A stretch of DNA of 32,000 nt, taken from positions 1,350,001 through 1,382,000 of the forward strand of contig NC_013967.1 of the NCBI RefSeq assembly GCF_000025685.1, in the 5' to 3' direction. A model generated the notes under the pieces. The model saw only the letters and a program-made list of their open reading frames with translations, did not search any database and was not told the origin of the DNA. Below are positions 21,874 through 28,984 of this stretch, piece by piece. Position 1 is the stretch's first letter. Every line of letters begins with the position of its first letter. The position numbers and the translations under genes are program-made. Origin of the DNA: Haloferax volcanii DS2. Its GTDB lineage: Archaea > Halobacteriota > Halobacteria > Halobacteriales > Haloferacaceae.

Positions 21874-23291
21874 ACCGTGGTCACCTCCTTCAGTTCGCGT
21901 ACGTCAGTCACTTCCCCGGTGACGGCCGCCGCGGCGACCATGCGCGGGTTCATCAGGACGGTGCGGCCGTCTTTCGACCCCTGCCGGCCGATGAAGTTGC
22001 GGTTCGACGAGGACGCGGAGGCCTCGTCGCCCTCCAGTTGGTCCTCGTTCATGCCGAGACACATCGAACAGCCCGCCTCGCGCCACTCGAAGCCGGCTTC
22101 TTTGAACACCTCGTCGAGGCCCTCCGCTTCGGCGGCGGCCTTGACGCGCTGACTGCCGGGGACGACCATCGCGCGGACGCTGTCCGCGACCTGTCGACCC
22201 TTCACGACCCCCGCCGCGCGGCGGAGGTCGGGCAGGCGAGCGTTCGTACACGAGCCGAGGAAAGCCACGTCGATTTCGTAGCCCTCCATCGTCTCGCCGG
22301 GCGTGACGCCCATGTGTTCCTGCGCCATCCGGGCGGTTTCCTGCTTCTCCTCGGGCAGGTCTTCGGGGGCCGGAATCGGCTGGGTGATGCCGACGCCCTG
22401 TCCGGGCGTGGTCCCCCACGTCACGACGGGTTCGAGTTCGGAGCCGTCGATGGTGACGACGTCGTCGTACTCGGCGTCCTCGTCGGAGCGGATGGATTCC
22501 CAGTACGGCTTGAGTTCGTCGAACCGCTCGGGGTTCTCCTGGAAGTACTCGGTCTCTTTCAGCCACTCGTAGGTGGTCTCGTCGGGGTTGACGTAGCCCG
22601 CGCGAGCGCCGCCCTCGATGGACATGTTACAGATGCTCATCCGGCCCTCCATGTCGAGATCCTCGATGGCCTCGCCGGCGTACTCGTAGACGTAGCCGAC
22701 GCCGCCTTCGGTGCCGAGGCGACGGATGATTTCGAGGATGACGTCCTTCGCTTCGACGCCGGGGCCGAGTTCGCCCGTGACCTCGATTTTCCGCACCTTC
22801 TTCTTCTCCATCGCGACGGTCTGGGTCGCCAGCACGTCGCGAATCTGGCTCGTCCCGATACCGAACGCGAGCGCGCCGAACGCGCCGTGGGTCGAGGTGT
22901 GGCTGTCGCCGCAGACGATGGTCATGCCGGGCTGGGTGAGTCCCTTCTCGGGCCCGATGACGTGGACGATTCCCTGCTCGCCCGACGTGGGGTCCGAGAA
23001 GTTGATGCCCGCTTCGCGGACGTTCTGCTCCAGTTCGGCCATCATCTCCTCGGCGGCGTCGTCGCGGAACGGCCGCGACTGGTCCGACGTGGGGACGATG
23101 TGGTCGACCGTCGCGTGCGTCCGGTTCGGGTAGGCGACTTCGAGGTCGCGCTCCTGCAACATGCCGAACGCCTGCGGGCTCGTCACCTCGTGGATGAGGT
23201 GGAGGCCACAGAACAGCTGCGTCTGGCCGGTCGGCAGCTCCGAAACCGTGTGTTCCTCCCAGACCTTGTCGTACAGCGTTCCCTCACTCAT
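21870..23291 (-). CDS. leuC: 3-isopropylmalate dehydratase large subunit
   Basis: Aconitase family (..[23 protein letters not shown].., ..GSCTNAR.., ..CSMCLGMN..). I prefer the ATG at 23291 ([14 protein letters not shown]) over the 29-codon basic extension on the track. Confidence 0.9.
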
Positions 23292-23547
23292 GTCCGTCAC
23301 CCGGTACGACGCGGTCGTCGCGGCCGCGTTCCCAGACCTGGTTCGCGCCCTCGCCGTTGCGGGGCGTGTGGTCCACATCGCCCATCGTCTCGGTCTCGGT
23401 CGCGTCCGTCGACGCGGGCGTCGCGTCGCTCCGCCCGCCGTCGGTGACGGCCGGGCCGCGCTCGTAGACCGTGGTGAACGTCTCGCCCGTATAGGGGTTG
23501 GTGTGGCTGATGTCTCGCATTCGGTCGGTCGTGTCGTCGCGTGTCAT
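23284..23547 (-). CDS. Small acidic Thr/Asp-rich protein (87 aa) embedded in the ilv-leu operon
   Basis: [89 protein letters not shown]3 is very high. The start lies 11 nt after the ilvC stop, and the stop overlaps the leuC start by 8 nt (ATGAGTGA). Confidence 0.65.
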
Positions 23548-25258: not shown

Positions 25259-27018
25259 AACTGGTCCTCCGAGAGTGCGAATTTGCCGTTCGCGCCGCCC
25301 GAGGAGACCATCGGATAGACGTTCTCCGCCGGGTCGACGTGGAAGTCGATGACCGAGGGGCCGTCGTACGCGAGCGCTTCCTCGATGACGTCGGGAACCT
25401 CCTCGTAGGAGTCGACGGTCCAGCCGCGCGCGCCGAACGCCTCGGCGAGCTTGTCGAACTGGGGACACCAGTCGTAGCCGGCGGCCATGCGTCGGCCCTC
25501 GAAGAAGGCGTCCTGCCACTGGCGGACCATCCCGATGTACTCGTTGTTCAGGATGGCGACCGTGATGTCGAGGTTCTCGCGGACGGCGACCGACAGCTCC
25601 TGAATCGTCATCAGGAACGAGGCGTCGCCGTCGACGCAGACGACCGTCTCGTCGTCGTCGGCCGCGACCCGCGCGCCGATTGCGGCGGGCAGGCCGTAGC
25701 CCATCGTGCCGAGGCCGTGGGACGAAACCCACCGCCGCGGCTCGGTGAACGTCCAGTACTGGGCGGCCCACATCTGGTGTTGGCCGACGCCGCTCGTGAC
25801 GATGGTCTCGTCTGGCGTGGCCTCGTCGAGCGCCTCGACGACGAACTGCGGCTTCAGCGGCTCGTTGTCCGGGGCCGCGTAGTCCATCGGGTAGTCGTCT
25901 TTCCACGCGAGACACTGGTCGACCCACTCGCGCGCGTCGGGACCCTCGTCGAGTTCGGCGTCGACGCGCTCGATGGCGCGGCCGGCGTCGCCGACGACCG
26001 GGTAGTCCGCGTGGACGTTCTTCGAGATTTCCGCCGGGTCGATGTCGATGTGGACGACTTCGGCCTCGGGCGCGAACGTGTCGATGCCGCCGGTCAGGCG
26101 GTCGTCGAACCGCGTGCCGACCGCGATGAGGCAGTCGGTGTGCGTGATGGCCATGTTGGCGTAGCCGGTGCCGTGCATTCCCGCCCATGAGAGGCAGAGC
26201 TCGTGGTCCTCCGGCATCGCGCCGATTCCGGGCATCGTGGTGACGACCGGAATCCGGTGCTCGGTCGCGAACTGCCGGGCCACCTCGGTCGCGTCGGCCT
26301 TGACGACGCCGCCGCCGAACAACAGGAGGGGCTTCTCCGCGCGCTCGATTGCGCGCGCGGCGGCCTCGACCTGCGAGTCGGCCGGGTCGGTGCGGGCGCG
26401 ACACGTCTCGGGGGGCTGTGCCGGCCCCGACTCGGTGTCGGTCTCGTTGAGCGAGACGTCCTTCGGGAGGTCGACGAGCGTCGGGCCGGGTCGGCCCTCG
26501 GCGGCGAGCGCGAACGCTTCGCCGACGGTGTCGCCGACGGTGTCGGGCGACGAGGCGAAGTAGTTGTGCTTCGTGATGGGCGCGGTGACGCCCGTGGTGT
26601 CGGTCTCCTGGAACGCGTCGGAGCCGACCATGTCGGACGGGACCTGTCCCGTGAGCGCGAGCACCGCGTCGGAGTCCATGTTCGCGTCGGCGATGCCGGT
26701 CACGAGGTTGGTCGCTCCCGGACCGGACGTGGCGAGACAGACGCCGGGGTCGCCGCGAACGACGCCGTACGCGTCGGCCGCGTGCGCCGCGCCCTGCTCG
26801 TGGGCCATCGTCACGTGACGGATGTCGGAGTGGTACAGCGCGTCGTAGATGGGCATTATCGCCCCGCCCTGCACGCCGAAGGCGGTCTCGACGCCGGCGT
26901 TTTCGAGGGCGCGGACGACGGCCGTCGAACCCGAGGTGACTTCGGTCGGCGTCTGGGCCGCGTCGTCGGCGGCGTCGGTCGCGTCGGGGTCGGTCGTGGC
27001 TGCGGTTCGTTCGCTCAT
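25255..27018 (-). CDS. ilvB: Acetolactate synthase large (catalytic, ThDP-dependent) subunit
   Basis: 587 aa with ThDP-enzyme N, central and C domains (..[13 protein letters not shown]...[12 protein letters not shown]..). Confidence 0.95.
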
Positions 27019-27160
27019 GTGTGGGCTCCGTGGTGTGTGGTCGGTCGTCGATACGGGCTGTCTGGTGACTGCGTGTGGTGCTGGTGCGCCATTGTAGGGA
27101 CTGCGGACGTGTCTGAAAACGGTGCGAATACGCGGGACGGAGAGATGGTGTGGTAGGGGG

Positions 27161-27262
27161 CTATGCCCCTACAATAATGAGCGACCGAATCGCAGCGACG
27201 GCGGCGGCGCTGGCCCCGGCGTCCGGGGTCGCGCGAACCGCGTGTTCGTCGTGCGAGGTCAT
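27161..27262 (-). CDS. Candidate leaderless 33-codon ORF (possible ilv leader peptide): MTSHDEHAVRATPDAGASAAAVAAIRSLIIVGA*
   Basis: The ATG at 27262 lies 26 nt downstream of the BRE/TATA-like GCGAAAA-CATTATTA. The first two thirds have GC-rich third positions, and the ORF ends in Leu-Ile-Ile-Val-Gly-Ala. The stop codon sits in a hairpin loop. The upstream part of the 69-aa track ORF is basic and contains the TATA element. Confidence 0.3.
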   Translation of the reverse strand: MTSHDEHAVRATPDAGASAAAVAAIRSLIIVGA

Positions 27263-27288
27263 CGTATGCAACACGTCCGTCCCGTCGG

Positions 27289-27295
27289 TAATAAT
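27289..27295 (-). promoter_or_regulatory. TATA-like element (minus strand ATTATTA, preceded by GCGAAAAC) in the leuA/ilvB spacer
   Basis: An AT-rich heptamer in GC-rich DNA, at leaderless spacing from the ATG at 27262. A second CATTATT copy lies at 27173-27179. Confidence 0.4.
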
Positions 27296-27382
27296 GTTTT
27301 CGCGGCGGGCAACGATTGCACGCCGGTCGGGAGGTCGAACGCGTGCAGGGCGGTCGCCCCGTAGGGCCACAGCCCGGCGCCA

Positions 27383-28619
<1,237 letters not shown>

Positions 28620-28644
28620 CGTGTCAGTGACGTGCCCGAACTCC

Positions 28645-28652
28645 TATTTAAA
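28645..28652 (-). promoter_or_regulatory. TATA box TTTAAATA (minus strand), preceded by GGGAAACG
   Basis: It lies exactly 25 nt upstream of the ATG at 28619, the canonical haloarchaeal leaderless geometry. It sits inside the long leuA track ORF. Confidence 0.5.
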
Positions 28653-28984
28653 CGTTTCCCCCCGACAGTGTCACGAACGTTCAGCGGGTGTTGTGTGACA
28701 ACCACTCTCGGGGGTAATCGCTGTACCTAAACGTCCTTATATGATATCATGACATATGTTGACTTGATATGTCCGCTCGTCGTTCGATAGCTTCTGAGTA
28801 ATAATATAACTAAATAGAGTTTAGAAACAAAATTTAGCACCCGGTGCGCGCACTCTCGACTGGACAAACGTGGAGCAAACTGCGACTGTCGTGTGAAACG
28901 TGATACCAATGTGCGTGTTCGTGCCGTCGAGGCCGTTCACTGCTCGACCGAACCCTTTTCTCGCCGCTCGACAACCGAGCGGGT

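Follow-up and report, generated by a model that had tools for sequence, protein, structure and literature searches.

The leuA-ilvB spacer in the ilv-leu cluster of Haloferax volcanii DS2 is the subject of this analysis. The window, the whole stretch of DNA that was analyzed, comprises 32,000 nucleotides (nt) of the chromosome (chromosome coordinate = window coordinate + 1,350,000), and the cluster lies on its minus strand. The leuA stop codon (27383-27385) and the ilvB start (27018) are 364 nt apart, in agreement with an initial annotation made from the sequence, which also stated that every other junction in the cluster is an overlap or at most 11 nt; this holds provided that a small open reading frame (ORF) between ilvC and leuC is included. 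As that annotation had proposed, the spacer contains a 33-codon ORF (sORF1, here called the leader ORF; 27161-27262, minus strand), which runs from the ATG at 27262 to a TAG stop (27161-27163) and reads MTSHDEHAVRATPDAGASAAAVAAIRSLIIVGA*. It is annotated in databases as 'uncharacterized protein HVO_1509', and a full-text literature search returned no mention of HVO_1509 by name.

A 152-nt RNA Starts and Ends within the Spacer

The internal promoter CGAAAACATTATTA (27289-27302, minus strand) consists of a CGAAA resembling a B recognition element (BRE), followed by the TATA-like ACATTATTA, with the TATA box at 27289-27297. A BRE/TATA pair with leaderless geometry ahead of the ATG at 27262 had been predicted, and indeed differential RNA sequencing (dRNA-seq) maps the primary transcription start site to 27265 (minus strand), 3 nt before the leader ATG. 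The published entry reads CHR 1377265 Rev, leaderless, start codon 1377262, distance 3, HVO_1509, 33 amino acids (aa), 'conserved hypothetical', with a promoter score of 7.35 and the TATA at −28 (Babski 2016). The 70 nt that this study prints ahead of a start site match window 27334-27264 exactly, which fixes the chromosome coordinates of the window. An AUG at the transcript 5′ end is the usual mode of translation start in haloarchaea (Babski 2016). The same map contains no start site for ilvB (HVO_1508) and none between 1372461 and 1377265. Since the next start site below 1377265, on either strand, is 1372461, ilvB has no start site of its own, and the promoters of the ilvB operon are the internal one and that of leuA only. 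A bacterial-type promoter and terminator scan is uninformative in an archaeon.

The RNA made from the internal promoter also ends within the spacer. Term-seq places a termination site at CHR 1377114 (−), intergenic, with HVO_1509 as upstream gene, a 3′ untranslated region of 47 nt and a mean coverage of 4318 (SuppTable1, Berkemer 2020); a further supplementary table of that study, taken as the DSM list, places the 3′ end at 1377115. The motif columns read 1/1 at 1377114, which, in a table without a key, we read as the intergenic T-stretch motif. The site falls within the terminator block TTCGCACCGTTTTCAGAC (27111-27128, minus strand), which holds a U4 tract at 27116-27119 that the initial annotation had singled out, together with the prospect of a premature 3′ end near 27116; the mapped RNA 3′ end at 27114 lies two bases past U4. 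The start site at 27265 and the termination site at 27114 thus define an RNA of 152 nt, which ends prematurely, 47 nt past the leader stop and ahead of the first structural gene. The cultures behind both maps were grown in complex or casamino-acid media (Babski 2016, Berkemer 2020), and the internal promoter is active in rich medium.

A mixed RNA sequencing (RNA-seq) data set, which includes synthetic glucose/ammonium (amino-acid-free) medium, contains one minus-strand unit of 8409 nt and nine genes (1370207-1378615). This unit begins at about 28615, at the leuA 5′ end and not at the internal promoter, and extends through leuB. Its coverage over the spacer is continuous, and therefore transcriptional read-through occurs.

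Just 5′ of the internal BRE, an inverted repeat GCAA-TCG-TTGC (27309-27319, minus strand) is kept in most Haloferax species (GCAACACTTGC in two of them) and is a candidate transcription factor operator. A forward intergenic start site has been mapped at 1377322 (window 27322, plus strand; Babski 2016), and the TATA region of the internal promoter appears to fire in the opposite direction as well.

The Leader ORF Is Conserved as an Open Frame with a Branched-Chain Tail

One IlvB scan of species-representative genomes gave 80 Halobacteria loci and covers Halobacteria whose IlvB is at least 70% identical to the query. The genera include Haloferax, Halobellus, Halogranum, Haloplanus, Haladaptatus, Halorussus, Halorubrum, Haloquadratum and several Natrialbaceae. 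In nearly all scanned loci leuA is upstream of ilvB, with a spacer of 200-650 nt. The counts given here refer to 79 readable spacers (78 scan loci and the window itself), one per species, and they overstate independence because the loci are phylogenetically related.

The leader ORF is intact in relatives, being found in 79/79 of these spacers. Its length ranges from 15 to 54 codons and its body is unalignable between genera. The distance from its ATG to the GTA near its end takes 20 different values, every one of them in frame, and the pooled leader bodies (6.3 kb) contain no in-frame stop, compared with 42 stops in the +1 frame. Across all 79 spacers the leader ATG sits at TATA distance (~30 nt), usually in the conserved context TACGATG, and the most AT-rich 7-mer is centered 27-31 nt 5′ of this ATG in 62/79 loci.

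The end of the leader consists of the invariant nucleotides AT[TC]-GTA-GGG-G[CT]N, then zero or one codon (three in two loci), then the stop. Among 78 peptides the stop codon is TAG in 61, TAA in nine and TGA in eight, an interchangeability that argues for selection on stop function and not on sequence. The proposed sensor codons of H. volcanii are CTC ATT ATT GTA (Leu-Ile-Ile-Val; 27170-27181, minus strand), of which Ile-Val is conserved class-wide: counting back from the GTA, position −1 is Ile in 76/78 peptides (ATT 58, ATC 18), and the Val is always GTA. Ile, Leu and Val make up 43% of positions −6 to −2, versus 12.7% in the body and 10% expected from composition. The enrichment spans positions −9 to −2, where 67/78 peptides carry at least two further Ile/Leu/Val residues, and it is mostly carried by the common GC-rich codons GTC and CTC; it is therefore not a by-product of AT-richness. 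The consensus leader tail is V-x-x-V-R-S-L-I-I-V-G-A-stop. The A/T-ending Ile and Val codons at the end had been described as seemingly rare, and the terminal codons are indeed rare in the genes of the cluster, where ATT accounts for 10% of Ile, GTA for 2.7% of Val, GGG for 9.5% of Gly and GCA for 4% of Ala codons.

The leader has a codon-position GC of 0.77/0.68/0.76, without periodicity, compared with 0.68/0.47/0.89 in ilvB. No Pfam or NCBIfam family was found for the leader, or for the overlapping frames ORF0 and uORF2 described below, and an Rfam scan of 26800-27600 with E values up to 10 gave only noise and no relevant match. The AUG at the mapped 5′ end, the lack of in-frame stops, the exchangeable stop codon, the synonymous variation of the Ile codon and the enrichment through common codons together argue that the leader ORF is decoded, and on these features of the sequence it is presumably translated. 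It is probable that HVO_1509 and its homologues serve as regulatory leaders and are not micro-proteins. As in an attenuator, a short and putatively translated ORF stands upstream on the operon transcript, and it is enriched in codons for the amino acids of the operon.

An Invariant Hairpin Is Followed by a G-Poor Stretch and a T Tract

The leader ORF ends within a conserved hairpin (27153-27172, minus strand), formed by GUAGGGG (27166-27172), the loop CAUAGC and CCCCUAC (27153-27159). Its 5′ arm is made of the Val and Gly codons, and the leader stop codon lies inside the loop. The initial annotation had described this hairpin as 7 base pairs (bp), a bulge and a further pair; the 7 bp are there, while the bulge and the extra pair are not, and a 6-nt loop with the stop codon takes their place. 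The GGGG/CCCC hairpin is predicted in 79/79 loci, with a free energy of −7.6 to −16 kcal/mol. At the fifth pair, 55 loci have C-G, 14 have U-A and five have U·G, while the position is unpaired in five; the U-A form occurs in several unrelated genera. Covariation is confined to this pair because the rest of the 5′ arm never varies. Furthermore, the motif GTAGGGG[CT]-N1-10-CCCC occurs exactly once per locus in 79/79 spacers and nowhere else in 758 kb, and the feature is therefore beyond chance. A motif search for a regulon in metagenome contigs gave, among the 120 matches listed, nearly all chance hits from non-halophile samples; four of the 120 are further leuA/ilvB contexts (three with both genes, one with leuA only), and no new genomic context was seen.

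Between the hairpin and the T tract lies a C-rich, G-poor unstructured spacer (27120-27152, minus strand). Over the 79 loci, the first 20 nt past the leader stop contain 3% G and 47-63% C and have no conserved structure. Runs of at least four T occur at 8.2 per kb within 60 nt past the leader stop, compared with 0.48 per kb upstream and 0 further downstream, an approximately 17-fold enrichment. These runs mostly fall into two classes, starting 12-17 nt or 38-41 nt past the stop, which corresponds to up to 18 nt or 27-39 nt past the hairpin. The distal class lies within a block GCAYCGTTTTC that is common to Haloferax, Halorussus, Haloplanus, Halegenticoccus and Natrialbaceae.

Conservation of the stems, which the initial annotation had left to comparison, extends to the core hairpin and its one covarying pair only. 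RNAalifold on 17 diverse leaders returned this hairpin as the only consensus helix, and no alternative helix recurred among minimum free energy folds in which a ribosome was placed on either the Ile codon or the stop. A pairing that was thought to compete with the hairpin does exist in H. volcanii, between 27091-27099 and 27167-27175 (9 bp, not 8), but a competing role is not supported: the arm at 27091-27099 is downstream of the mapped RNA 3′ end, is mismatched in the closest relatives (CCCCACAAU) and is missing in other genera. Likewise, a 9-bp inverted repeat (27104-27112/27271-27279) is present but not supported as a bracket of the unit; its arm at 27271-27279 is upstream of the start site and therefore absent from the leader RNA. 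By a rough estimate each of these 9-bp repeats is at chance level, and neither is conserved. Two further complementarities of 9-11 nt (I3 and I8) were rejected as not conserved in Haloferax.

Outside the 152-nt RNA, the sequence GGGCUGUGGCCCUACGGGGCGACCGCCC right after the leuA stop (27348-27375, minus strand) is near-invariant in Haloferax and 87% complementary over 15 nt to 27158-27172. It is present only on leuA read-through RNA because it lies upstream of the internal start site, and on such long transcripts it could, judging by this complementarity, pair with the hairpin region.

A Bridging Reading Frame Connects leuA to ilvB

A second frame, ORF0 (27015-27383, minus strand; predicted product 122 aa), spans the entire spacer in the −1 frame relative to the leader ORF. 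Its ATG (27381-27383) overlaps the leuA stop as TGATG, and its TGA overlaps the ilvB ATG as ATGA. The overlapping leader ORF and ORF0 are in different frames, and neither is interrupted by a stop. An ATG on or within a few nucleotides of the leuA stop, mostly as TGATG, is present in 78/79 loci, and the 70-277 nt that separate the ORF0 ATG from the leader ATG are 1 mod 3 in every case. From the leuA stop to the leader ATG the ORF0 frame contains one stop, versus 47 and 95 in the other frames, and from the leader stop to ilvB it contains five, versus 54 and 60. ORF0 runs uninterrupted to the ilvB ATGA in 62/77 loci. In loci with differing frames, an ATGA at the end of ORF0 opens uORF2, which in its turn ends on the ilvB ATGA, forming a relay; in H. 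volcanii, uORF2 (27015-27092, minus strand) is the distal ORF0 frame with an ATG of its own, its stop overlapping the ilvB start. An unbroken chain of overlapping ORFs thus leads from leuA to ilvB in 71/79 loci, and in most loci without an intact chain ORF0 ends about 13 nt or less from the ilvB start. The ilvB translation start (27016-27029, minus strand) combines a Shine-Dalgarno-like GGAG (27026-27029) with the ATG (27016-27018); CACGGAG before ilvB is invariant in Haloferax, and other genera show GGAGG-like motifs.

The predicted ORF0 product is basic and Arg/Pro-rich, its codon-position GC is flat, compared with 0.68/0.47/0.89 in ilvB, and it has no family match. ORF0 was accordingly rejected as a true protein and as the shadow of an antisense gene, and the frame therefore seems to be kept open for translation, not for a protein. 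The overlapping stop and start codons that termination-reinitiation relies on are found for ORF0 and uORF2 on a single transcript, the 8.4-kb unit spanning both genes. Presumably, ORF0 carries ribosomes across the terminator on transcripts initiated at leuA.

A programmed −1 frameshift from the leader into ORF0 was considered and rejected. There is no slippery site, the AUY before the GUA follows a variable codon, and, by inspection of codon-anticodon pairing, tRNA-Ile is unable to re-pair on NAU. No conserved heptamer was found 5-9 nt 5′ of the hairpin in the leader spacers examined.

Two plus-strand antisense RNAs have been reported, one covering the leuA 3′ end (1377331-1377447), the other the ilvB start codon together with the uORF2 end (1376988-1377064) (Laass 2019).

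A Proposed Two-Input Model for Control of ilvBNC-leuCDB

The mapped transcript ends and the conserved sequence elements make the locus a strong candidate for a ribosome-mediated attenuator in Archaea. We consider it probable that the leuA-ilvB spacer is a two-input control region with a leader-peptide attenuator at its core. This keeps the central idea of the initial annotation, a leaderless Ile/Val-ending ORF carried by an ilvB transcript that stops prematurely at a U tract, and dispenses with its competing helices and 9-bp bracket.

For the first input, we infer that ribosomes stall on the leader and that read-through responds to amino acid supply. The internal promoter fires in rich medium, giving an RNA that starts 3 nt before the AUG, and a ribosome would load in leaderless fashion onto a leader that is conserved only as an open frame, with Val/Leu/Ile-rich last ~ten codons and an Ile-Val-Gly-(Ala/Val)-stop end. 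With ample supply, the ribosome would reach the stop in the loop and depart, and the ribosome-free polymerase would cross the G-poor stretch and terminate at the T tract; termination before ilvB is the state seen in the published replete-medium maps. When charged Ile or Val tRNA (often also Leu tRNA) is scarce, the ribosome would stall on the tail codons, over the hairpin 5′ arm, and the stall would alter the fate of the polymerase at the T stretch, so that more transcripts enter ilvBNC-leuCDB. By one route, the stalled ribosome would block formation of the hairpin, which would otherwise aid termination or pausing. By a second route, a ribosome retained on the transcript would exclude the termination factor aCPSF1/FttA, and a ribosome-exclusion model for FttA has been proposed on structural grounds (PMC11616081).

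The second input would come from the leuA promoter. On these transcripts, ribosomes leaving leuA would be handed to ORF0 and translate over the hairpin and terminator, rendering the transcripts immune to attenuation, and would then be delivered to ilvB through termination-reinitiation. Ile and Val synthesis requires ilvBNC, whereas leuA is dispensable for both. The invariant leader residues are these same two, which fits an internal promoter that bypasses leuA. If the model is true, one spacer integrates a Leu-side promoter input with an Ile/Val-side attenuator input. The full proposal, that this is the first archaeal ribosome-mediated transcription attenuator, Halobacteria-wide, different in its working from those of bacteria and composed of a leaderless Ile/Val-sensing ORF, a single invariant hairpin, a U-tract (aCPSF1/FttA-type) terminator and a bridging ORF that confers immunity, is advanced tentatively, as a real possibility.

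Several observations weigh against the attenuator model. The frame relation between leader ATG and hairpin is imposed by ORF0 too and therefore does not count as separate evidence for the leader. Not even the synonymous sites of GUAGGGG vary, so that a sequence-specific trans-acting factor could be the actual sensor. A run of at least four T is present in just 37/79 loci (at least three in 50/79), and at two distances. We know of no hairpin requirement for termination by archaeal RNA polymerase. Neither RNAalifold nor the constrained folds revealed a conserved antiterminator or second hairpin, and the mutually exclusive terminator and antiterminator helices of a classical attenuator are thus lacking here. 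The model is weakest in how the position of the ribosome would act on termination: no conserved antiterminator supplies the connection, and the geometry can be used to argue for either sign of regulation.

Alternative Explanations

It is possible, though unlikely, that the GUAGGGG...CCCC hairpin or the whole leader RNA is itself the functional element, bound by a protein, a small RNA or a metabolite, with an ORF that is incidental or positions or clears ribosomes and no sensing of charged tRNA. In 79/79 loci the 7-nt 5′ arm shows no variation at synonymous positions, beyond what a hairpin needs, a single pair covaries, with no alternative structures, and the leader RNA is abundant (coverage 4318), all of which would suit such an element. 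However, every locus has an ATG at its start site, TAG, TAA and TGA stand in for one another as the stop in the loop, the Ile codon varies synonymously, and Val, Leu and Ile are enriched 5′ of the hairpin through common codons, and these properties argue for decoding rather than RNA recognition. The RNA is also without an Rfam match.

That HVO_1509 is an ordinary micro-protein gene with its own promoter and terminator, ilvB being transcribed from the leuA promoter only and without attenuation, seems more doubtful still. The peptide body is unalignable, its length varies from 15 to 54 aa, there is neither codon-position GC periodicity nor a protein family match, and just four C-terminal residues are conserved, as nucleotides. 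Moreover, the ORF is always directly upstream of ilvB on the same strand, and a micro-protein would leave the Ile/Leu/Val-rich tail unexplained. These points stand against a coding sequence annotation with its own start and termination sites, a continuous 8.4-kb unit that begins at leuA, and a leuA promoter that is seemingly silent in complex medium, where the HVO_1509 promoter is active.

A third alternative is ermC-like translational control, whereby the ilvB start would be hidden in a long-range helix until a ribosome, pausing on the leader tail, opened it. It draws on a complementarity of 88% over 24 nt between 27177-27200 and 26995-27018 in H. volcanii, with duplex z-scores of −2.7 to −3.75 in the four closest species. 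The pairing is, however, confined to the H. volcanii species group, with a mean z of −0.4 over the 79 loci, and most leader transcripts terminate before ilvB in replete medium. We therefore regard it as quite improbable as an account of the region.

The 24-nt match involves the ilvB ATG and first seven codons, and the plus strand of 27177-27200 would encode MSDRIAAT, compared with MSERTAAT in IlvB. It may be a lineage-specific translational add-on or the relic of an inverted duplication.

Finally, the initial annotation had raised the notion that ilvB uses the second CATTATT (27173-27179) as its TATA box, with a fortuitous ORF, and the AT-richness of this stretch in Haloferax speaks for it. 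The notion is refuted almost beyond doubt, as no start site maps to 1372461-1377265 and many genera are GC-rich there (GGT-ATC-GTAGGGG, GCC-ATC-GTAGGGG), GTAGGGG and not TTATT being conserved.

Comparison with Known Leader-Based Regulation

The E. coli ivbL-ilvBN and ilvL-ilvGMEDA systems are classical ribosome-mediated attenuators, the IvbL peptide ending in ...VVVVVGNAP. Together with the ilvB leaders of actinobacteria, they are the nearest systems in function. Like them, the haloarchaeal locus has a short ORF on the same transcript ahead of an acetolactate synthase operon, a run of Val/Leu/Ile codons near its end, a stop codon adjoining an RNA structure, and, ahead of the first structural gene, a U tract where transcripts end prematurely. 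Unlike them, the haloarchaeal leader is leaderless and without a Shine-Dalgarno sequence, and it has one invariant hairpin where E. coli has mutually exclusive 1:2, 2:3 and 3:4 helices. Instead of abutting the hairpin, the T tract follows it at a distance of up to 18 nt or of 27-39 nt, and termination would use archaeal machinery (a U tract, with or without aCPSF1/FttA). The haloarchaeal element shows no similarity to leader families in Pfam, NCBIfam or Rfam.

A further parallel comes from actinobacteria, where an upstream ORF (uORF) before ilvB, associated with the ilvB-II motif, is reported to regulate ilvBNC in Corynebacterium (PMC10272879, PMC11857589), and where ilvB attenuation is likewise reported in mycobacteria (PMC13236596). 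As reported, the actinobacterial leaders resemble the haloarchaeal one in having a uORF before ilvB in a high-GC organism, some apparently on leaderless transcripts; they differ in being modeled with three hairpins and an intrinsic terminator, whereas the haloarchaeal locus is without conserved alternative helices and has a bridging ORF.

In enterobacteria, tnaC/Rho and mgtL/Rho are examples of leader-ORF control of factor-dependent termination. As in these systems, an unstructured stretch rich in C and poor in G comes after the haloarchaeal leader ORF, and termination would hinge on the presence of a ribosome. FttA has been hypothesized to be a Rho-like checker of transcription-translation coupling (You et al. 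2024, PMC11616081). Unlike the case of tnaC and mgtL, FttA prefers U-rich RNA, and the sign needed here, with starvation leading to read-through, is not obviously given by simple occlusion. To our knowledge, there is no archaeal case of leader-ORF control of factor-dependent termination.

Huber et al. 2019 reportedly described termination-reinitiation coupling at overlapping H. volcanii genes, and such coupling of overlapping genes is also treated in a review (PMC12548453). The TGATG that ORF0 shares with leuA, the ATGA that it shares with ilvB and the relay ATGA junctions are like those of coupled gene pairs. Unlike such pairs, ORF0 is not protein-like, varies between 67 and 218 codons, and spans a promoter, a leader ORF and a terminator.

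The initial annotation had remarked that no ribosome-mediated attenuator has been shown in archaea, which accords with a 2021 publication stating that no archaeal example of attenuation or antitermination is known (PMC8448881), and our literature searches found no later report of archaeal attenuation. Public tables separately contain the ORF and its start and termination sites, but, as far as we have seen, the connection between them is new. The candidate is class-wide and found in a model organism amenable to genetics, for which maps of the start site and the 3′ end already exist. It makes testable whether archaeal transcription-translation coupling is tight enough for regulation, how ribosomes interplay with U-tract/FttA termination, and whether attenuation can operate without alternative hairpins. 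If the model is true, the bridging ORF would exemplify a novel type of selected feature, a frame held open solely for ribosomes to cross a terminator.

The leuA 5′ End and the ilvC-leuC Gap

At the leuA 5′ end (28539-28655, minus strand), the TATA box TTTAAATA (28644-28651) precedes an ATG at 28619 with leaderless geometry. The LeuA catalytic domain is not in frame with this ATG (+1), which lies 103 nt (1 mod 3) from the DTTLRDGEQ codons. The corresponding distance is 94-109 nt and 1 mod 3 in essentially all loci examined, the exception being locus L047, and many loci are without any in-frame leuA start codon. The N-terminal part is acidic and halophile-like only in the ATG frame, and from (V/I)EFFQGTL on, substitutions are conservative only in the leuA frame. 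The junction between the two is a near-invariant block, CCCCGGCGG(G/A)TCGAGTTCTTC(C/G)AGGGCAC, which holds a rare CGA codon and a CUU-C site, and stop codons limit any shift to approximately −12 to +26 nt around it. The simplest reading of this arrangement suggests a conserved programmed +1 frameshift in leuA; an alternative that it also suggests is a second leader ORF, MSHNDTEDSSGSPAGRVLPGHISPTI*. A literature search found no report of a leuA +1 frameshift, and when a hypothetical LeuA N-terminus carrying the frameshift was used in a protein search, the only matches were fragments whose N-termini are mis-called and one in-frame variant, whose gene model diverges downstream, consistent with an indel or an assembly error.

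At the leuA promoter the published table lists no primary start site in complex medium (Babski 2016). It does list an 'internal' start site at 1378513 (window 28513, minus strand), inside the conserved RIFDTTLRDGEQ coding stretch of leuA (Babski 2016), and an RNA starting there could not encode an active LeuA.

The gap between ilvC and leuC is occupied by an acidic small ORF of ~87 aa (23284-23547, minus strand), which begins 11 nt past the ilvC stop. This ORF is probably HVO_1505, an identity that agrees with the published 7-gene operon count and with the antisense RNA given to HVO_1505 (1373538-1373588).

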